DNA from: Schmidtea polychroa
Lineage: Eukaryota
Assembly: GCA_044892525.1 (NCBI GenBank)
Contig: CM097885.1
Location: forward strand, 12,898,001-12,962,000
Direction: 5' to 3'
Length of the DNA stretch: 64,000 bases
Shown: in pieces, positions 7,972 through 57,938 of the stretch
How positions within the stretch are numbered: position 1 is the first letter of the stretch
Layout: each line of letters opens with the position of its first letter
Notes under the pieces: model-generated
The model's database searches: none
What the model saw: only the letters and a program-made list of their open reading frames with translations
Told to the model about the DNA's origin: nothing
Program-made: the position numbers and the translations under genes

Positions 7972-8019
7972 GATATTGTTTTTTAATAATAATTGAGACA
8001 AGGAAAGATACGAATAATT

Positions 8020-8995
8020 GTTGGAATCTATTATTTTTGTCAACACTGCAATCATTATTTATATGGAAAACGGTTCATTTTGAGAACGGTCCATAAAGCT
8101 ATCACGTTTATGTTATCCACAAAGAAATCAATAACAACGCAATTTCAGACATGGATAAACTACCTCAGTAGTCTGGATATTGAAATAGAGTATAGAAAAG
8201 GTACGGATCATGCAAATGTAGACATGCTGTCAAGAAGTACATGTGGAACATGCACACAATGTTTATTGGTACACGAAGACGCAAAAGTGGAAAGAATGAA
8301 AACCAGAAGAATAAACACGATGGAAAAAGCTGAAGATTATAAGTGGCAAAGAGATAATACATAAATAGAACAAATAAAAATTTTGCCGCTAAACAGTATG
8401 AGGAAACGGTGAAGGAAACAATACTACAAAAATGGATTCTTAGATTTGGAACACCAAAGGAAATTCAAACAGATTGTGGAAAAGTATTTGAATATAAGAC
8501 GATGAAAGATTTTACAAAATCAATGGGAATTACACAATGTTTTTCAAGTCCATACCACCATAATACAAATGGTTATATAAATGCATCATTAAAAAAAATA
8601 GAACAGATTGGGCAGTGATCATACCAGAGATTGATTTTACCATGAATGCAACATTTCAGAAATCAATTGGGCGAAGTCCCGCAGAAGTAATATTTGGAAG
8701 TAAAATAGCTCGAGAACAATTTCATAGTAAAGCGCCGATTTCACAAACAGAAGATACACGAGAAACAACGCAGACAAAAAAAATCATTCAATATTGGAGG
8801 TTCTGGTAAAAGTAGAATCAAGAACGAAAGACAAGGAAAGATACGAAGGGCCATACAGAATAATGCAGAAGATCCATCATCGCCGATATCTGCTACAAGA
8901 CTAAAGTGGGAAAATGCTTCAAAGAAATGTTGAAAAGATGAAGAAATTTCTTAAAGAAGGGGGATGTGAGGTGTTTTCAGCTGAGAATTAAATAT
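8020..8995 (+). mobile_element. Ty3/Gypsy LTR retrotransposon pol remnant (RNase H, integrase core, GPY, PPT, start of 3' LTR)
   Basis: HYLYGKRFILRT...IEYRKGTDHANVDMLSR; RFGTPKEIQTDCG...SPYHHNTNG; GPY motif; polypurine tract AAAGAAGGGGGA at 8953-8964 followed by TG; stops and frameshifts. Confidence 0.9.
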
Positions 8996-10387
8996 TTCAA
9001 TGATTTATTAAGATAATTTTAAACTGTAAATAATAGACTATTAAAATAACTTTTAAAATAATTTTTAAATTGAAATTTTTAAATTTTTAAATTGAAAAAT
9101 TAAATTATCTTTTTAAAAGAAGTTTTGTTAATAAATAATTTTTAAATAAATATATTTTAAATATCGAAATTTTAATAAATGGTTTTGAAAATATTTTATT
9201 CATGCTGAAAATTAGTTTGAAAATTATACAATATTTCAGTAAATAAATACTTGGAATAATGACGTTAACTTTTGAACCAGATTTAAAAAATAATTTAGAA
9301 GATGTTTTAGCCGCTTCTAATAATAATAATAATATTTATTATTTTTTAATAAACTAAATTGTTATTTCCTTTACTTTATTATTTCCTCAGGCTATTTATT
9401 AATCTAAAAATAAAGAAAATGTAATAATAATAATAAATATTATTATTAATATTAATGCATATTTTTGTTCACTTTTGAATTTTTTTTATTTTCTTTTAAA
9501 ATTTTATTTGCTTTCAATAAAATAATTTTCAATATCACATATAGACAAAGTAATGAAAAAATAAATGAAATTTTTAAAAGAAAATAATAATAATTATTAT
9601 TATTATAGTTATTTAAAACAATAAAGTGATAATTTAAGCCTTTTGCTGCGAATAATGTATTTAATGACAAAATTTTCGACTATAAGATAGCCCTTTCTCC
9701 GTATTTCCAAGTATTTTGCCCGGCTTAGGCCTTTTGAAAGTATAAAGTGATAATATCTTGGTAGCAGCATTTATTATTTAAAGTGATAATTTAAGCCTTT
9801 TGCTGCAAATAAAGTATTTAATGAAAACATTTTCGACTTGAAAACATTTTCCTTGTCAATCTCCTTTTATACTATTATCCCTATTATAATTATAATCGAG
9901 CCATTTAAAATTAATACGTTATCTCCAAGAAAGATGAAAAATCCAAAATGAATGACCAAGTATTGAAATAATCACACTATAAATAATTAATTAGTCATAA
10001 TTAAATACTTCCTTTCGGTTTTTAACCGAGATTTTCAGTGAAAAATAAGGGTGAATGTAATTTGAGTATATAAAAATCCAAATCCCGGGGATGCTAACCA
10101 GAAAGTTAGTAAATAATAATTCTTAATTATATCCCAACTAAATTTGATGAAAATAAATATACAAAATATAATAATTATAAATTCTATTTATTGGGAATAT
10201 ATGGAAAAGGTACATGAAATTTGGATTCAAATAATTGTAACAATTTATTAATAATATTTTGAGACATTTTTCAGTTCAATTATGCATAGAAATGTACAGA
10301 TGGAGTTGATAGGTTTAATTCTCTCTATTTTATTGGGAAAATGTTTTTTTTAATTTTATTTCATTAATTAATGAATTAAAAAACTAT

Positions 10388-11141
10388 AGTAGGTAGTTAT
10401 GTGCACTCTAGATCCAGATACCCCCCCCTATTTTTTTTGTAAATTTTTAAAAGACCCCCCCCCTTTAATTTTTTTAAAAATTTTTTAAAAGACCCCCCCC
10501 CCATAATTTTTTTTTTAATTTTTAAAATACCCCCCCCTATTTTTTTAATTATCGATTACGTAATAATTTTACTTTTTGTTTTAATCATCGATTACGTAAT
10601 AATCTAAAAATTTTTAAAACGCCGATTACATCATTGATTTTAATTTTTTATAAGAATTTTTTATGTCATTATACTTGAAATTTAATTCTCTGTTAAATGA
10701 GACTATGATGTAATCAAAATTCTGAAATTTCATTTTTAGTACACGATTTTTAAATTTACACATCTTTTTAAACAAATTGAGATGTTTTCACTCAAACAAT
10801 ATATAGATAGAATTTTAATCTCTATAAAATGACATCATTATTTACTTCAAATTCATAATCATAACACCTTAAATAATGTATTTTTCAGCCAACTTTTACA
10901 TACACACATATTTTCAACTTTTAAAAAATACAAATTAATCATCTATACTTAACTCATAGTAAATAATTATATTAAAAGACATATTAAAAGATGTATTAAA
11001 AACTAAACATTTATTAAAATCCCAGAGAAATTCGAGCACTATCTAATTTCCAAATCGGTGATATGACATCTTTCTCATCCAGTTTATATCCCTGTATTGA
11101 AATATTTACAAACCAGCTTTCCCCATCTTTATATTCAATTT
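10388..11141 (+). repeat. Left terminal inverted repeat of the Polinton-like element
   Basis: Reverse complement of 17189-17874, with indels in the C-tract region. Confidence 0.93.
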
Positions 11142-11487
11142 CTTCAAAGGCATCATGAAAACGAGAATTTCGATTGTTGATGATTATATTTCCATTGCAA
11201 CTTAGATTCTTATTGATTTTCCCCAACACTTTATTTACTGCAACAACATCTTCTTTTGTTATATGAGCAATGAAACTTGAATATTGCGACTTGATCAATT
11301 TGACTGCATTTGAGAATTTATATGGAATTTCGTCTACCAAGAAATATATCTTATGGTTATGATACATTTGTACTGGTTTCACATCATTCTTGGCATGCTT
11401 CGTCTCAGTTATTTTCTTAATTGGGCTTGTTTCTTTCAATAAATTAGAAAATGTTTTCTCACCAAAAACGTTCTTCTTGGATTGCAT
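11014..11487 (-). CDS. Polinton accessory protein of unknown function (157 aa)
   Basis: Intact, intronless ATG-TAA ORF with normal protein composition; stop codon overlaps AATAAA. Confidence 0.75.
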   Translation of the reverse strand: MQSKKNVFGEKTFSNLLKETSPIKKITETKHAKNDVKPVQMYHNHKIYFLVDEIPYKFSNAVKLIKSQYSSFIAHITKEDVVAVNKVLGKINKNLSCNGNIIINNRNSRFHDAFEEIEYKDGESWFVNISIQGYKLDEKDVISPIWKLDSARISLGF

Positions 11488-11840
11488 TTTTTAAAAAATA
11501 ATGACTATGATGTCATTTTTTCTCTCTTTTATACTTGTGTATAACCAATCAAATTAATGCATTTGTATTGCAAACAACATGCATGTGTCATTGACCTTCG
11601 TGTGTGACCTTTGTATGTGACCTTTACCTTTGTGACCTTTGTATGTGATTCATACAGGGTTTGCATATGTATTGCAGATGTATTGCAAATTAGTTAATTA
11701 AAACGTGTACTAATTAGTGTGATATTAAAAATATTATACTAATACATGTAACATAAAAATACTATAACATAAAAATAGTGTACTATCACAAGTAACAATA
11801 TAAAATTAGAAAACAATGTATTATAATAACTAAACATTTA

Positions 11841-12200
11841 TTAGTGATCTACAATTAATGAAAAGTGAGCTTTTCTCAACTCTTTTCTTAATATCCATAT
11901 ATTATACTTCTTCTCTCTATCAATACATCCTTCGCACTTGTATGGGCATACTGATGGCTTGCTGCTGTCAACAGGGTCAAGATCGTCTTCTAACGTCCTC
12001 AAGTGATCAAACAAGACCACATTCAAATCTATTCCGGTAGACATCCATATTCTGAATGGAATAATCTCTGGTGCCCAATAGATTAGATCCTTTAAAATAT
12101 TCGGATATAATTCCCCCATTTTCCCAATCAGAATCTGTATCATTTTTTCTAAAACATTTAAAATTATAAATATAAAAAAGCAATAATCAAAATATACCAT
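11841..12200 (-). CDS. Polinton accessory protein of unknown function (up to 119 aa; CxxxCxxC motif)
   Basis: Intact ORF; shares a 16-nt stop/polyA motif with the neighbouring ORF; the true start may be a downstream ATG. Confidence 0.65.
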   Translation of the reverse strand: MVYFDYCFFIFIILNVLEKMIQILIGKMGELYPNILKDLIYWAPEIIPFRIWMSTGIDLNVVLFDHLRTLEDDLDPVDSSKPSVCPYKCEGCIDREKKYNIWILRKELRKAHFSLIVDH

Positions 12201-12328
12201 TTACAGTTAAATTTGACATTCTCAACTAGTACTAAATAAATGATTAAACTGTTATTGTATATATATATATATACTTATTTCGATACACACCATCAACCAA
12301 TTGGATTCATGCATAGACGATTGTAACT

Positions 12329-12793
12329 TTAGTTTAGGAAAAATTTTAAAAATTCCATGTCATCAATTACTGATTTAATATCTTTAATAATTTTATAAAC
12401 AAGTAAATGGTAATCCAATGTCTTTATACCGAGTATAACTACTTTACCACTATTGAATATGTTAACACACATTGGATTATATTTTATATATCTTAATGCC
12501 GGAAATATTTCTGGTTCATAAATACATTTCATATACTTTGATAAATCATTTAAAATAACATTTGATTCAATATCAGCAGTAACTGTAATCGATTGAATTT
12601 GTAAATCCTTGATTTCATATTTTAAATCTTCAACTTTGATCGATTTTTTACATCCCATTATTCGACATTTACCTGACTTGAAAAATATTATTGAATTTTT
12701 ACCGCTTCTGTCAACAATTTGTTGCGGTTTACCTTTTGGAAATTCCATATGAGATACATCAAATCTACCTTTATAATTTATATTACTAATCAT
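12329..12793 (-). CDS. TATA-binding protein (TBP)-like protein, 154 aa, intronless
   Basis: Two TBP repeats: ISNI...IIFFKSGKCRIMG and IQSI...YEPEIFPAL...NIFNSGKVVILG (canonical TBP: LIFSSGKMVCTG and YEPELFPGL...LIFVSGKVVLTG). Confidence 0.92.
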   Translation of the reverse strand: MISNINYKGRFDVSHMEFPKGKPQQIVDRSGKNSIIFFKSGKCRIMGCKKSIKVEDLKYEIKDLQIQSITVTADIESNVILNDLSKYMKCIYEPEIFPALRYIKYNPMCVNIFNSGKVVILGIKTLDYHLLVYKIIKDIKSVIDDMEFLKFFLN

Positions 12794-12882
12794 ATTTTTT
12801 CAAATAATTTTTCATCAAGTAAACTGATGAATTAAAACAAATATAAACAATATTAATATATATATATAACTAATTTTTTAAA

Positions 12883-13470
12883 ATGGAATTAAGAAATGAT
12901 GCTGTTTATCAAATTGTAGGTCCAAGCGGTAGCGGTAAAACTTTATTTGTTTGTAAATTATTACAATCAAAAATGTTCAAGTCAAAATTCAATAAAATAT
13001 ATTGGCATAGGGGTGCTGATGACGAACATGGTTTGACGCAAGAACAATTCTGTAAATTAAAAATGACAATAATAAAAGGATTTGATAAAAACTGGTCATC
13101 TAGATTACAACAAGGTGATGTAATTATTATTGATGATTTATATCAAGAAGCTAACAAAGAAAAAGATTTTAATAATTTATTTACAAAAATATCTCGACAT
13201 CAAGGTGTAACAGTTATTTTTATAACACAAAATCTGTTTCATCAGGGTGGGAGTCATCGAACTCGGAACTTGAATGTTCAATATCTCGTTATTTTCAAAA
13301 ATCCGAGGGATGCAACTGTTATTGATTTCATTGCAAGACAAGCATATCCAAACAATCGTAACTTTCTAATTGAATCATTTCAAGATGCAACCAAAATACC
13401 CCATGGATATTTATTCTTTGATTTTACTCAGCAATGCATGGATGATGTACGTATTAGGACAGATTTTTAA
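12883..13470 (+). CDS. A32-like (FtsK/HerA superfamily) DNA packaging ATPase of Polinton type
   Basis: Walker A GPSGSGKT, Walker B VIIIDD, arginine finger SRH, ITQ sensor, FKNPRD and HGYLFFD motifs. Confidence 0.93.
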   Translation: MELRNDAVYQIVGPSGSGKTLFVCKLLQSKMFKSKFNKIYWHRGADDEHGLTQEQFCKLKMTIIKGFDKNWSSRLQQGDVIIIDDLYQEANKEKDFNNLFTKISRHQGVTVIFITQNLFHQGGSHRTRNLNVQYLVIFKNPRDATVIDFIARQAYPNNRNFLIESFQDATKIPHGYLFFDFTQQCMDDVRIRTDF

Positions 13471-14710
13471 TAAAGATGGTGTAACAGTTTATAAACAAAT
13501 TAAATTCTGTCTGACTATTAGGCAAGTGTTATTTGTGGTATACTTTTTCAATGTCATTTCTTATCAATTCCCACCATAAAACACAGATACCTAAATATAA
13601 TATATATATTTTAAAGAATTAATTCATGTCTTACATTAATAATAATATTCTTCAGGTATGACGAGTACTTTACTTAATTGCTAAAACATCGGTTTTTCCC
13701 ATTTTTCTTGACATTCGTTGAAAGAAAGTTTACATAATTTAAATCTGATAAGTAAACATTCATGTTGAAGGACACCCACAATCAGCTAATTCATTTAAAA
13801 AAAAATCCAGAACATAAGTCATTTAGTGTTTCACCATTTTGCCTGGTTCATCTTCTTCATAATCCAATAATTCATGTTTTAATAAGAAATCTCTAAATCC
13901 AGAACATAAGTCCTTTAGTATTTCACCATTTTGTCTGGTTCATCTTCTTCATAGTTATATAATTCATTTTCTTCATTACTAAGTAAAATAATTAAAATAT
14001 TGTAGTAAATTCTTTATTTACTTACTTTATGGATACTAAAACAAAAGAAATAAAGTTATATGAAAAGTTTATTTAAATAATTTAAATTTAGTTATTTAAA
14101 AATATTTAAACAATTTAGTTCTTTAAGCATATTTAAACATTAACATTATTATATAGTACAATTTTATATAGTATTATAATATTATAATTTTATGTATTCT
14201 AAATTTATTAATAAATACAGTATAATTTTATATAATATTATAATATTATGTATTGTAAATTTAATATATCCTTCATTTAATTTTTTAAATTCAAAAATTT
14301 ATAATGAAGATTCTTTGAATTAAAAAATATTCTGTTAGTATTTCCAGGCAGAAAACAACGAATTCAATAATTAAAATCTTAATTTTCATGTTGTTAGGGT
14401 TGTGGCCAGAAGTTAATCGCCATCTAATCGTTTGTTCTCAATTTCGCTCATTTTTGTTCAAAACATTCAGGTGAGTTGTTATCTGGAAATTTTCTTTGAG
14501 CTCAGTTTTGTTAAAACACTCACGGTATTTTTAAGGGACGTGTCACTGGAAATAAATTAACAATGGGTAGTTGGTCTGAGCTGTCGATTTATTTTAGAAA
14601 TATGTATATTAAAAACATTTAAGTTATCATTCAGTAAAATAATATAATATTTTTGAGTATGTTTTAGTTAATTTATAAATAACAGTATTTTGATATATCA
14701 ATAAAGACCA

Positions 14711-16795
14711 TATACTCCTAGTTTATCCGACAAAATATTCTGTCCCCCTATGGGTATTGCTAGCAAGGGTACTGGTCACATTCAACATGTCGCAAGGCTA
14801 TATTAATCATTTAGAAATTCTTAGGTAATTTAGTGAGATGATCGTGAATATTTTAAATGTAACTTTACACTTATGTCGAGCGACTAATTTATTGGTTAAC
14901 TTTGTAGTCATTTAAAGCAAAAATTAATTTATTCATCTAATGTTCGTTACAATAGTTAATAATATGAGAAAAACATGGTCATTATTCATTGATAATTTTA
15001 AATTCTTTATCATTTGGAGTAAATTTGTTTGAGGCAAAAATATTTAAAGGAGTCATAATAAAAATATGGTTATCATTTAACCAATTAAGGGGCTTATTAG
15101 TTAGAAATATATATTATAAAGTAACAATTATTTTCTAATTTAATTAGATGATCATTAGACGTAATATATCTTTGCGAGAAATTTAAGATGTTTGAGTAAC
15201 CAAAACATGGATATTTTGTGAGATAAATTTATGAATATTGTTTAATTTTGTTATTTTTAGTCATTTAAAATAATATTTAGCAAAGGTAATTTAGCAAAAT
15301 ATCATTTATCCACCCGATAACAATATTCCTTCAATAGATTAACTGATATTCAACCTATTTAATTTCTGGTAATATAATTAAAATCATAAATTTCCTTCAA
15401 TAAAGTTAAAATTTCTTTAGTTGTCAATGTCCAACTCTTTTAAGTCAATATTTTTGATACCGTTACTTCATAATGAATGTCCGTCTTTATCATGTTAAAT
15501 AAAATAATTTAAAGCAATAACCTTTGATATCAATTATCTCTAAATATTTCAAATATTTCATTGACAAAACCAAGTAAATTAGTCATTAACCCTAAACACT
15601 TCAATAAAATCCTGGATAATTAATAGACTATTTCCCTTGAAACATTTCCAAAAAGAACATCACCCATTTAAATGATCAAAACATTTCCACCGTAACCGAT
15701 CCCTCACCAAATATTTCTACCCCTTTAAACATTCAACCGACAATAACCCCCTTAAATACTATATATTCTCAACTTAACTGAACCCTCACTAAATCCAACC
15801 GACTATAATTTCACCCACTTGAGCCCTTTAATATATCTTAAAATCTATAGAAAATTCTTCAAAATATGAATTTTATTTAATTGTTACAGACATTTTTCCA
15901 TTGAAATAATTTAGTAGCTAAATTCATGTAGTAAGAGCCCATTAAAAAATCAAAATTTACTAAAATCAATATTTTCTACAAATATTTCACCACATTTACC
16001 ATCAAATACCTAACTAGAAATGAAATATATCGATTGATCATAATTCTTCATCGATTCAGCTAATTATATAGCAATTATAACGTGATATATCTTTCAAAAT
16101 CACAAATTTCAGTATATTTTACAATAATTTTTACAAAAATTAAATAATAATAACTTGATTATTGTAAAAACTCTAATTATTAACCTAACTGTCATTAAAA
16201 ATATTATTATTTAAAAGTAAATTTAAAAACAAGTCAATAAAATATAGCAAATTATCAAGAAATTAATTAAATTTGTCTTAGAATTAACACTAAAACGTTA
16301 AATTTCAAAATATTCTTTCAATTATTCACAAAAAGGTTAGTAATAATGTTAGTAAAATCCCGCTAACTCTAAAAATTACCAACGAATTTAATGCTAAATA
16401 ATAACCAAAAATTTGCCTAAATAAAACACACCAGTACCTTTACGACCAGTACCCTTACGAGCAGTACATTAGTAACCTTTACCTTTGCGACCATTACCCA
16501 ATGTGTTAATAAATTTTAGTGTATATATAAAGTATAATATTTAGAATTTCTTTGTTAAAGTTCTGTCTTGAATATTTTTAACAGTACCTTTGCGACCTTT
16601 ACCTTTGTGACCACTACCCAATGTGTTAATAAATTTGAGTGTATATTTAAAGTATAATATTTAAAATTTCTTTGTTAAACTTTTGTCTTGAATATTTTTA
16701 GCAGTACATTTGTGACCTTTACCTTTGTGACCTTTACTTTTGTGACCATTACCCATAGGGGGACAGAATATTTTGTCGGATAGACTCGGACTATA
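14711..16795. mobile_element. Inverted-repeat-bounded segment (MITE-like) inside the Polinton
   Basis: 45-bp inverted repeats at 14711-14755 and 16751-16795 (3 mismatches), TA at both ends; tandem subrepeats at 16430-16760. Confidence 0.65.
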
Positions 16796-16815
16796 TATAA
16801 TTATAATACTTTGAA

Positions 16816-16902
<87 letters not shown>

Positions 16903-17188
16903 TTGTTGCATGTGTGGACACTAATAAGATTTTTTATACATTGTGTGTAATAATATGTTAAAGTTTTAGCAGTACCTTTGTGACCATTACCCTTAGAGGA
17001 ACAGAATATCTTGTCTGATAGACTATATATGATAATACAAAGTATGTGCAATAATTTTATTTTGTCAACTTAACCGTCAAAATAAGTTTTTAAAATAAAT
17101 TTTAAATTTTAAAATACCGCAACGTAATATATTTAAAAAGTATGATGAGTCATGTGTGTCTTTGTATGCAATATGTCTTTGTTATATA

Positions 17189-17874
17189 AAATTGAATATA
17201 AAGATGGGGAAAGCTGGTTTGTAAATATGTCAATACAGGGATATAAAATAGTTGAGAAAGATTTCATATCACTGATTTGGAAATTAGATAGTGCTCGAAT
17301 TTCTCTGGGATTTTAATAAATGTTTAGTTTTTAATACATCTTTTAATATGTCTTTTAATATAATTATTTACTATGAGTTAAGTATAGATGAATAATTTGT
17401 ATTTTTTAAAAGTTGAAAATATGTGTGTATGTAAAAGTTGGCTGAAAAATACATTATTTAAGGTGTTATGATTATGAATTTGAATTAAATAATGATGTCA
17501 TTTTATAGAGATTAAAATTCTATCTATATATTGTTTGAGTGAAAATATCTCAATTTGTTTAAAAAGATGTGTAAATTTAAAAATCGTGTACTAAAAATGA
17601 AATTTCAGAATTTTGATTACATCATAGTCTCATTTAACAGAGAATTAAATTTCAAGTATAATGACATAAAATATTCTTATAAAAAATTAAAATCAGTGAC
17701 GTAATCTACATCATAAAAAATTATTACGTAATCGATGATTAAAACAAAAAATAAAATTATTACGTAATCGATAATTAAAACAAAATTTAAATTTAAAAAA
17801 AAAATAAAAATAAAGGGGGGGGGGTATCTGGATCTAGAATGCACATGGATCTAGAGTGCACATAACTACCTACT
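17189..17874 (-). repeat. Right terminal inverted repeat of the Polinton-like element
   Basis: Reverse complement of 10388-11141; includes a copy of the 3' end of ORF 11014-11487. Confidence 0.93.
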
Positions 17875-19891
17875 AACTATGAACCCTTCTTTAAAAGGTG
17901 TACCTTTTCTTTGTGATTTATTTCTGGAAAACTGATCCAGTTTAAAATGTAAAAGAAGGTTTCCTTGGATTTAGAAATTAAACTTAGAGCGAACCGAGTT
18001 GCTCTGTTACGTAGGCTGCAATATGACATCTGTAATGATCTGGGAAACATTTGGAATCGTTTTTTTTAATAATCATGTTTTTCTATTTCAAAAATTATTG
18101 CTATATAAATAAATGATAAGATAAGCCTTTTGCTTTTAAGTATGCGTTAAATAAACAAAGTTCGATTTGAAATTGAAAAGGATTGTTTTATCATTTATTT
18201 GTTTAAGATTTAATTTATGCTGCTACCAAAAAATCATCATTTTATTATATTAAAAATATTGTTAAATAAACCTTCACAACCAACTCATGAATCGTTCATA
18301 TCAAATTCTAATGGCGTTACAATTAATTTTATCATGTCATTCCTAGCTGTAAACTTATTTTAACTTGGTTATGGAAACATTACAGGCAAATTAGTTTTAT
18401 AGCAATTGTCCATTTTTTGTTGAATGTAACCATATATATTGATGATTGTTATTCTAATTGTTTCCATTTTTTCCTTTCTACTTTTATCCAACAGTTTAGT
18501 AGTGAGTAAATCAAAATGGTATTTGTCTCAAATGTTTATATCTGCTACCATACTTACGGGATAATATTCTCTTGTGGGCTTAATGAATAAAGCGGTTACG
18601 CTATGGAACAAATGGTGCATTCTCCCTTATACACCCGTTTCCACATGTTAAAAGTCTCTATAATGCATGTTGGTGTGTTCATCAATCGATGACTCACCAT
18701 TTATGAGAGAGTTTATTTTATTTTTTCATTTTCAATTCAATTTTATTTATGATTTTAGAAGTAAGTTTTTTAAATTTAAGTACACTATAGGACATTGATT
18801 TATCATGCGGACATTCAATTAGCTAAAGATTTTCCATTTAAAATTAATTAATTATAAAAAAATATACAAGAATATGTCAGAAACTTCATCAGAATCGACT
18901 ATTTCATTACAAGAAATACATAGATGAATGCTCTTCAATAGACGGACGAACAAGAGCTTCGGTAGATCACGAGTAGACAATAGAATTTATAACAATATAC
19001 CAACAAATCGAGGTCTCAATTTTCAAAGATGAGCTAATCCATTTACAGTAATATATCTTCATTGACTATTCAAATAGAAAAATTGCCATATAATCCATTT
19101 TTGAACCCCATCGAAAGTGTTGAGCAAAATTAAAAATGGGGTAAGGACTAAAGTTTCTTCGGTTGATGGATTTTCCAGACAGATTTACCTTCAATGAATG
19201 ATTTACTGCAATATCCCAAGCAGTTAACAAGGAACTTCGAAAACCAGATCATAATAATTTCAAAAATCATATTAATAATCACATTAAAGATTCTTCCCTA
19301 AATTCTTGATATTTTAATAAAACTATGAAAAAGTTAATGTATATTATAATAAATAAATAAATATCTTACTTCTTTATTCATTATTTTAACAAAAAATCTT
19401 AAAATTAACTAAAATCCAGAACAAAGCTTATTTGACAAAGCTAAATGAATGTCTCATTTATGATAATTAAATGCGCTTTGGTGTATGTGTTCTGTGTTTG
19501 TATGTAAAATTATTTTTCTGTCACTTTGTCAATTCCTATAATAAAACTTTTAACATTCGGAACATTAAATTTTTGCACACAGGTAAGTTTGTGTGTTGCT
19601 ATAATATAATTTTATCGTTTTTTTTTAGATTATAGAAACTTTTATATTGTGGATTTAGGTGTATTGTATGTGTCAAATAAACGAGATGTTTATTTGTGCG
19701 TGTGTATGTTTTCAGTTTTTTTCTGCGTTTAAATTAAGCATGTGTTGTATGTGTATGTTTGTGTGTGTGTGATAAAATTTACTGTAAGATATTAGATTGA
19801 ATATCAAAATATTTTAAATGTTTTGGAGATTACTAGTTTTGTTTAAAAATACGAAACGAATCGATATATTTACTGATTCATAGTCAAGCTT

Positions 19892-47873: not shown

Positions 47874-48094
47874 AGCATAAATTTTCGTTTTTTCGATCGT
47901 TGTGGTTAATTTGGTCTATGCTGTTTGGAGCTGCCGTCAATGCCGACAATCCGCGAGGAACTGCGAGCAGATTTCTTGCTAATATTTGGGCATTATTTGC
48001 ATTGGTTTTCCTAGCCAGTTATACAGCTAATTTAGCCGCTTTTATGATAGCAAAAGATGACTTTTATGATTTGACCGGTATTAAAGATGCTCAT
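47874..48094 (+). CDS. Nmdar2: NMDA receptor GluN2-like subunit, exon (M2 pore loop and M3)
   Basis: [20 protein letters not shown]...[11 protein letters not shown] gate motif; AG/GT borders. Confidence 0.97.
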
Positions 48095-48336
48095 GTAGGT
48101 TATGTTATATTTATTGGAAAGATTTCCGATAATAAAACGGACTGGGAAAGATTTTTATTTAAAATTTATTTTTATTAAAAATATTAAGTTCAGTAAATAA
48201 TAATAATAATAATAATAATAATTATTATTATTATTATTAAAAAAAGAAAAGGTATTAATAAATTCAATGGAAAAAAATAATCAGTGGTGAAATTGGAAGA
48301 AATAAAAGTTCTTATAATAATATTATTATTATTATT

Positions 48337-57413: not shown

Positions 57414-57649
57414 GCAAAATGCAAAGATGGAAACAATATTGGCTAACTGGCGCTTGTAAGAAAGACAGAAGATTGGACAGTACGAATAAGAGATTGGGAG
57501 TGAAAAATTTCATTAGTGCATTTATTTTGCTGCTAGGGGGAATTATTTTATGTAGTTTGCTTCTTTTATTGGAGCATGCATTTTACAAATATCTGAGACC
57601 TCATTTAACCAATATTGACAAATATGGTTGTTGTGGACTTGTTAGCATA
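57414..57649 (+). CDS. Nmdar2: NMDA receptor GluN2-like subunit, exon (S2 end and M4)
   Basis: Follows a 46-bp intron; YWLTGAC...LGVKNFISAFILLLGGIILCSLLLLLEH; GTAAG donor. Confidence 0.94.
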
Positions 57650-57695
57650 GTAAGAAAGCTACTTAAAACAATAGGTTTGTATTATAGTTTTGTAG

Positions 57696-57938
57696 AGTAT
57701 GGGTCAGATTTTGAATTTTGAACAGTCTGTCAATCAGACAGTCGACATGGTAAAACACCATAAATGCTCAAATATTATTTGCGAGTCAAAGTGGTTAAAA
57801 GCAAGAAACGAAGCAGATAGATTGAAAAAACGAGTCGAGATGCTAGAAGATGCTTTAATTTTAGAGAAATCGCAAAATAAAAATAAAAAGCAGTCAAATA
57901 ATTATCAGGAAGAAAAAATTAAAGATTGTACAGAGTAA
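57696..57938 (+). CDS. Nmdar2: NMDA receptor GluN2-like subunit, C-terminal exon (possibly not the last)
   Basis: Follows a 46-bp intron; SMGQILNFEQSV...HKCSNIICE...coiled-coil-like segment typical of invertebrate NR2 tails. The TAA at 57936-57938 overlaps a possible GTAAAT donor. Confidence 0.85.
   Translation, partial: SMGQILNFEQSVNQTVDMVKHHKCSNIICESKWLKARNEADRLKKRVEMLEDALILEKSQNKNKKQSNNYQEEKIKDCTE

Follow-up and report, generated by a model that had tools for sequence, protein, structure and literature searches.

What can a TATA-binding protein (TBP) still do when its first repeat appears to lack both helices and its second repeat keeps the contact for TFIIB? This question is raised by a small TBP-like gene of Schmidtea polychroa, lying in a window of 64,000 nucleotides (contig CM097885.1, positions 12,898,001 to 12,962,000; the coordinates below are those of the window). 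An earlier note, made from the sequence alone, had described the protein as asymmetrically minimised and had suggested that it either reads a non-canonical TATA or acts as a TFIIB decoy. From comparisons of sequences, predicted structures and upstream regions, we consider it likely that the protein is a one-protein late-promoter factor using the box YATAAAC(A/G) together with host TFIIB and RNA polymerase II. The features on which the argument draws are listed in Table 1.

Table 1. Features of the TBP-like gene and of the element that carries it
Feature	Position in window	Strand	Basis or remark
Left terminal inverted repeat	10388..11141	+	Preceded by target-site duplication AACTAT (10382-10387)
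Conserved 157-aa ORF, possible single-strand DNA-binding protein (lead only)	11014..11487	-	Relatives in 22/80 metagenome loci
TBP-like gene, 154 aa, intact ORF	12329..12793	-	ORF list, Pfam, AlphaFold model, structural alignment
YEPEIFP stirrup of repeat 2: E93, E95 (yeast E186, E188), F97	12500..12520	-	Residue counts; role as given in PMC7221094
19-residue linker (residues 48-66) replacing basic helix 2	12596..12652	-	Model, intervals
Repeat 1 (residues 1-60), retaining five strands but with neither helix 1 nor helix 2 predicted; N6, P23, R44 and M46 fixed	12614..12793	-	Model, residue counts
Pro23 at the intercalating Phe99 position (yeast numbering)	12725..12727	-	P in 178/188; spacing register
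Short loop (residues 11-17) replacing helix 1	12743..12763	-	DSSP on model; N69-F116 interval
TATAAACA, candidate late-promoter box in the head-to-head gap, 41 nt before the ATPase start	12842..12849	+	Motif scan
(TA)6 run, possible ordinary TATA of the TBP-like gene (weak: simple repeat)	12857..12868	.	Sequence
A32-like packaging ATPase, head-to-head with the TBP-like gene	12883..13470	+	Early end: 195 aa vs 207 in other copies
Second TATAAACA	13490..13497	+	In other copies precedes the next cassette gene, missing here
Right terminal inverted repeat	17189..17874	-	Followed by AACTAT (17875-17880)

The stretch on which the earlier note had commented, 12570..12793, encodes residues 1-75 of the 154-aa ORF, and the Pfam TBP domain (PF00352) matched repeat 2 only (residues 64-127, E 3e-15). 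The AlphaFold model (pLDDT 96, built from 74 sequences) has the two-repeat saddle fold of the TBP family and aligned with TBP along its whole length (VIA Z 12.7, 143 residues, rmsd 2.5), residues 1-147 corresponding to residues 66-240 of yeast TBP. Yeast numbering was set by this superposition, in which residue 4 is N69, and agrees with Table 1 of PMC2265533. Cellular TBPs of yeast, human and archaea likewise form a two-repeat saddle along their whole length, but have helices 1 and 2 of repeat 1, which are missing from the short Polinton clade described below. The 154-aa protein belongs to the TBP fold family, yet lacks several defining features of cellular TBP.

In the model, helix 1 of repeat 1 is absent and helix 2 is a three-residue turn, repeat 2 keeping both; a helix-keeping relative modelled identically has both repeat-1 helices (H19-25 and H63-77). 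The interval from N69 to F116 comprises 34 residues compared to 47 in host TBP (13 fewer, helix 1), and that from G125 to Q158 comprises 20 compared to 33 (13 fewer, helix 2). The model and the intervals bear out the earlier observations that repeat 1 is without most of helix 1 and that its helix 2 is cut to a short linker. The basic N-lobe helix 2 of eukaryotic TBP is thus absent from the model, and the median net charge of the helix-2 segment is +1 in short forms and -1 in long forms of the family, compared to +4 in 11 cellular-type (non-archaeal) TBPs. As had been stated earlier, the helix-2 surface is described as the common site of TFIIA, TAF1, Brf1/2 and Mot1, which bind a basic N-lobe patch with three positions on this helix (PMC7221094).

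The earlier note had also placed KPQQ where YNPKRF lies in TBP, with the loss of one Phe. The loss stands, but the register does not, as without gaps KPQQ matches RFAA and FPKGK matches YNPKR. MAFFT placed Pro23 on P96 with two compensating gaps; the ungapped register is our own reading, and Pro23 was assigned to F99 based on this register and on the spacing from Pro to a conserved K/R, which is 6 in 129 of 132 sequences, the same as that from F99 to R105. On the ungapped register, the repeat-1 stirrup would be of full length with the Phe alone replaced. Of the four intercalating Phe of the TBP family, three are kept and F99 is Pro (Table 1). The description of repeat 1 as eroded was not upheld, the mean top-residue frequency among 139 short-form sequences being 0.51 for repeat 1 compared to 0.54 for repeat 2. 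Because repeat 1 is conserved as much as repeat 2 and its stirrup reads as full length, repeat 1 is remodelled rather than eroded.

The two C-lobe glutamates of TBP form the contact with TFIIB/Brf (PMC7221094), and both are retained in the family, with E at position 186 in 198 of 221 sequences and at position 188 in 213 of 221. The motif YEPEIFP, which had been read in repeat 2, is present at residues 92-98, outside 12570..12793; F97 and F113 of repeat 2 are both kept, as had been noticed, as is F38 of repeat 1, and QS does replace the repeat-2 QN at residues 67-68. For the TFIIB core P0232, which shares 92% identity with the host exon, a complex prediction run with neither alignments nor DNA scored 0.18, below the mark of 0.34, which weighs neither for nor against binding. 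The host is AT-rich, and the named proteins most closely related to a TFIIB with 92% identity to its exon come from flatworms. Compared to cellular TBP, F116, F190, F207, N69, E186, E188, L189 and P191 are kept, whereas F99P, V71N, V122R, T124M, N159S, V161T, I194R, V203C and L205N are changed, and R196 and T215 are lost from the family. On the DNA face, R at V122 (192/195), M at T124 (214/215), N at L205 (212/220) and S/T at N159 (216/219) are nearly fixed. The central Asn69/Asn159 and Thr124/Thr215 pairs are not intact, with N69 kept, S/T at 159, M at 124 and mostly L at 215. In long-form proteins, V203 is often His. Since fixed changes are found on the DNA face of both repeats, repeat 2 is not canonical, and the idea of a canonical repeat 2 beside a decayed repeat 1 gives way to a DNA face rebuilt in both.

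V122R and I194R are reported to be DNA-binding-null in yeast TBP (PMC2265533 Table 1), which, together with the loss of R196 and T215, suggests that TBP-type DNA binding might be absent; ordinary TATA binding by the TBP-like protein is unlikely. The strictness with which the concave face is kept suggests another ligand. A protein devoid of DNA binding could sequester host TFIIB or Brf1 as a decoy, damping host transcription, and the kept stirrup, the two null substitutions and the loss of one Phe, as in TRF2, a TATA non-binder (PMC10005294), would all agree with this. However, the concave face, with its three Phe, K120, K211, N69 and new invariant polar residues, is held more constant than a decoy would require, and a decoy would also leave the box described below unaccounted for. 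The decoy, which we regard as rather improbable, is thus the weaker of the two earlier readings, and for the other a candidate box was found.

Genome G000 contains at least 42 full-length copies of the gene at 97-100% identity, as well as further subfamilies at about 64% identity (150 scored of 4168 candidates). The family set, assembled from 88 homologues and 150 representatives with 10 cellular-type TBPs set aside, held 221 sequences, some partial; the collecting searches favour query-like sequences, and the residue counts come from a table without a motif filter. The median N69-F116 interval is 38 (n=175) compared to 47 in host TBP, and the median G125-Q158 interval 21 (n=214) compared to 33. 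The short form was found in roughly 140 full-length relatives (139), and 29 other genomic copies showed no gap and differed at 1-2 residues. In six pairwise comparisons, in which dS was partly saturated, dN/dS was 0.13-0.36. The deletions, whose recurrence in other copies had been proposed as a check, are thus family-wide, in a gene under purifying selection.

A tree was built from 63 sequences and 107 columns, leaving out the deleted regions and including no giant-virus TBPs. Support was 100/100 for the separation of the family from cellular TBP and 95/88 for a single clade of the 32 short forms; a fast tree of 180 rows was concordant, apart from an outlier labelled as short and a long form with a wrong label. 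That the copy in the window is internally deleted, with an ATPase that ends early, might suggest that the missing helices reflect the decay, private to a single copy, of a TBP captured from the host. This reading, to which we give next to no credence, is refuted by the family intervals, the gapless copies and the short-form clade, and the dN/dS values also speak against it. By the AU test, a single clade of helix-keeping forms is compatible with the data (p 0.28), so that these forms need not be a grade; with the root at cellular TBP, helix loss would be derived in both cases. The long forms already carry F99P, V122R, T124M and L205N (35-36 of 36), and their helix 2 is non-basic. As most of the DNA-face changes and the non-basic helix 2 are already found in the long forms, the DNA face and the basic patch are likely to have changed before the helices were dropped.

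The TBP-like gene and the ATPase lie inside a 7.5-kb element (10388-17874), whose long terminal inverted repeats and 6-bp target-site duplication are traits of Polinton/Maverick elements. Within the 64-kb window, no match to an integrase, capsid, protease or polymerase was found, and the element is internally deleted, its middle being lost; of the Polinton gene set (retroviral-type integrase, protein-primed PolB, C5 protease and A32 ATPase), which is represented across copies, the window holds the ATPase alone. Because integrase, C5 protease and type B polymerase are present in other copies in G000 and in relatives, the element is assigned to Polinton/Maverick. Among 80 metagenome loci, 33 are at least 3 kb long, and 27 of the 33 have a Polinton hallmark gene, some of the queries coming from these loci. 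A 407-aa ORF, considered as a possible double jelly-roll major capsid protein, has no Pfam or PDB sequence match, and hhalign gave 74% to the capsid-position ORF of another Polinton, a weak profile match; the capsid labels used here denote gene position and this profile match, and early or late timing is an assumption based on the type of gene. The 63 element ORFs scanned yielded no TFIIB, though a very divergent one could escape, and the five places examined among 21 matches to PF00382 (TFIIB) in G000 are host-type genes. Counterparts of herpesvirus late activators gave no Pfam match among the 63 ORFs, many of which have no assignment at all. Viral contigs scanned with TBP, ATPase and capsid queries yielded no relative; a single match (E 8e-4) was set aside, the contig being phage-like.

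Several other observations were made on the elements and their surroundings. The 157-aa ORF often adjoins the TBP-like gene, and its Atlas matches at 0.87 to phage single-strand DNA-binding families are a lead only. The cargo of TBP-carrying elements varies (L065, L097, L062 and L116), including a ubiquitin-conjugating enzyme, RING fingers, a dual-specificity phosphatase, KilA-N and a PLA2-like domain. The host has several divergent TBP paralogues (L046-L051), two of them intronless (L048 and L051), with changed stirrup and Phe positions. G000 also has clusters of divergent TFIIB-like genes (C1 23.8-24.2 Mb and C3 38-39 Mb), at least 13 in number, which encode about 300 aa and lack introns; the two examined (L149:4185-5096 and L150:4575-5486) have no Polinton genes nearby. 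The window also holds LTR retrotransposon fragments (RNase H and integrase; 7993-8809, + strand) and short ORFs (47900-48178 and 57419-57721) resembling what we take to be exons of ionotropic glutamate (NMDA-type) receptors.

The non-canonical TATA suggested earlier has a candidate in YATAAAC, found before the cassette genes. Among windows of 110 nt upstream of conserved element genes, from which those more than 70% alike had been dropped beforehand, 80 of 91, covering eight cassette gene classes, carried the motif in sense orientation, where shuffling predicted about 4, and none carried it in antisense. It was found upstream of the ATPase (21/23), the next ORF (10/11), the likely minor capsid (6/9), the core-protein-like gene (9/9), the likely major capsid (10/10), the protease (4/5), the post-protease gene (12/15) and the PLA2-like gene (8/9). 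Before the TBP gene it occurred in 0 of 48 windows, 24 of which contain TATAWAWR (6.1 expected); for polymerases and integrases the counts were 0/3 and 2/4. In an unbiased count, ATAAAC ranked first among 6-mers and TATAAAC among 7-mers, and in six long metagenome loci 61 sites faced the same way as the cassette and 2 the opposite way. The distance from box to ATG is variable, mostly 32-45 nt and 99 nt for one gene class. The first base is T in 24 and C in 32 boxes of eight long-form loci (including L115 and L116), and T in 51 and C in 11 boxes of nine short-form loci; long-form loci are more GC-rich than short-form loci. A further TATAAACA (12394-12401, +), to which no downstream gene is assigned, lies within the TBP-like gene in antisense orientation.

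Near gene ends, 19 of 26 Ile-Asn pairs within coding sequence were coded as ATA-AAC, compared to 5 of 50 at other places, with two reading frames involved, indicating that the constraint acts on DNA; this codon test ruled out a protein-level cause. A reading of the box as a poly(A) signal was also ruled out, AATAAAC accounting for 2 of 89 sites and the site in the window lying between head-to-head genes. Since long-form, helix-keeping elements have the same box as short-form elements, helix loss is not what permits its use. In a TBP-less Polinton family of G000 (3 copies), the box precedes no intact cassette gene, and in four partial viral contigs of TBP-less Polintons it was found at 1 of 42 ORFs; TBP-less elements carry TATAAATA or TATATAAG upstream of the ATPase. 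These controls are distant Polinton groups, and protein and box mark one lineage; a close TBP-less sister element was sought and none was found. The TBP-less family of G000 (L137-L142) is very abundant, and upstream of most of its genes a TATA-like site at constant distance is not obvious either.

The N-terminal repeat of TBP is reported to read the 3' half of the box (PMC1636458), and TBP kinks DNA at steps 1/2 and 7/8 (PMC10005294), so C at position 7 may coincide with the lost Phe99 and the change of Val122 to Arg. The sites I194, V203 and L205, which are R, C and N in the family, are those of the altered-specificity yeast mutant TBPm3 and read box position 2 (PMC1636458); because position 2 of YATAAAC is an ordinary A, the box leaves the changes at these sites unexplained. 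TBPm3 is thus likewise changed at the three sites in a specificity shift, but it reads TGTA, altered at position 2, whereas the candidate Polinton box differs at positions 1 and 7.

Activity with host TBP on TATAAACG is given as 27% in plant protoplasts (PMC10005294), and on this one plant assay the box would be weak for host TBP, not dead; entry 1qn3 is wild-type TBP on the C(-25) variant. The box may thus be a weak promoter read by host TBP, which tolerates TATAAAC (entry 1qn3; PMC10005294), or by one of the divergent host paralogues, some of them intronless, with the TBP-like protein acting elsewhere, for example at the terminal repeats in replication, as its frequent neighbour, the possible single-strand DNA-binding protein, could suggest. 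If the promoter were read by host factors, however, fixation of the disfavoured C7 at nearly every cassette gene, with canonical boxes at the TBP gene, would be unexpected; the different motifs of TBP-less elements and the retained TFIIB stirrup also argue against it, and we consider this explanation unlikely.

The protein could also bind the box as a repressor silencing integrated copies, or need an unrecognised element-encoded partner covering the surface of the lost helices. Herpesvirus TBP mimics are reported to require five more viral proteins (PMC4893493), and many element ORFs lack a Pfam match. A repressor, however, would not need a TFIIB stirrup, and the model is compact and confident across the linker (pLDDT 91-97). 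Both variants together seem improbable to us, and a late-promoter factor working through host TFIIB remains our preferred reading.

Known viral TBPs provide points of comparison. The TBP mimics of beta- and gamma-herpesviruses (BcRF1, ORF24 and UL87) serve TATT late promoters before structural genes (PMC4893493, PMC7498053), and the Polinton system would share with them, by analogy, a viral TBP-like protein and a variant TATA box before structural genes. The herpesvirus proteins are large, act in a six-protein complex and bind the Pol II tail directly, as described in those articles, whereas the Polinton protein has 154 aa, keeps the TFIIB stirrup and has no extra domain, the fold spanning residues 1-147; the variant base is at position 7 in the Polinton box and position 4 in TATT. 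The fold match to BcRF1 was weak (E 0.012). Herpesvirus mimics are the closest working model by analogy, without homology in context. Giant-virus (Nucleocytoviricota) TBPs are described as losing the N-lobe regulator patch and the C-lobe glutamates, with the TFIIB-contact glutamate about 40% conserved and a viral TFIIB nearly always encoded (PMC7221094). They matched the fold at 8-22% identity and share the condition of a viral TBP without the N-lobe regulator signature, but the Polinton family keeps the glutamates at 90-96%, with no TFIIB found in the elements scanned. Metazoan TRF2 has likewise lost an intercalating Phe (PMC10005294).

In the open full text on Polinton/Maverick elements and TBP, the only relevant mention found was the label 'TBP' on a MELD/adintovirus-like genome map in the Fig. 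5 legend of Starrett et al. (PMC8502044) and its preprint; a supplementary file of PMC8502044 gave no match. That legend entry marks a TBP-similar gene in a Polinton-like element, which may or may not be of the same family, without structure, conservation or promoter analysis. TATAAAC was absent from the Polinton promoter literature among the matches listed, and the timing of Polinton capsid genes was not described in the open full-text literature searched.

Considering these results, we propose the following scenario for the TBP-like protein of this Polinton lineage. The TBP-like gene may be expressed early from an ordinary TATA/initiator promoter, and its product would bind the YATAAAC(A/G) box before the packaging and likely virion genes, with repeat 1 accommodating C at position 7 through F99P, V122R, T124M and V71N. 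Host TFIIB would then dock on E93/E95 of the acidic stirrup, followed by RNA polymerase II. The loss of helices 1 and 2 would remove the surface for TFIIA, TAF1, Brf1 and Mot1, and the protein may thereby be confined to TFIIB and spared eviction. Helix loss would be a later streamlining and not the source of the new specificity. In its full form, which on balance we favour over its negation, this Polinton clade would use one protein of 150 aa, the smallest TBP in nature, to switch from early to late expression, with both repeats reprogrammed for YATAAAC, the surface for TFIIA, TAF1, Brf1 and Mot1 stripped, and host Pol II engaged via TFIIB alone.

If this scenario is true, the protein would prefer YATAAACA to TATAAAAG, and the protein and its box would constitute a natural orthogonal TBP/promoter pair and direct evidence for a staged viral life cycle of these Polintons, a cycle that a dedicated factor with a matching box makes testable. 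The pattern of giant-virus TBPs, in which the host TFIIB contact is dropped, would be reversed. The family also represents a natural deletion test of which parts of TBP are needed for TFIIB-based initiation, for which helix-keeping and helix-less forms offer a ready comparison, and it bears on whether specificity for the 3' half of the box can change.
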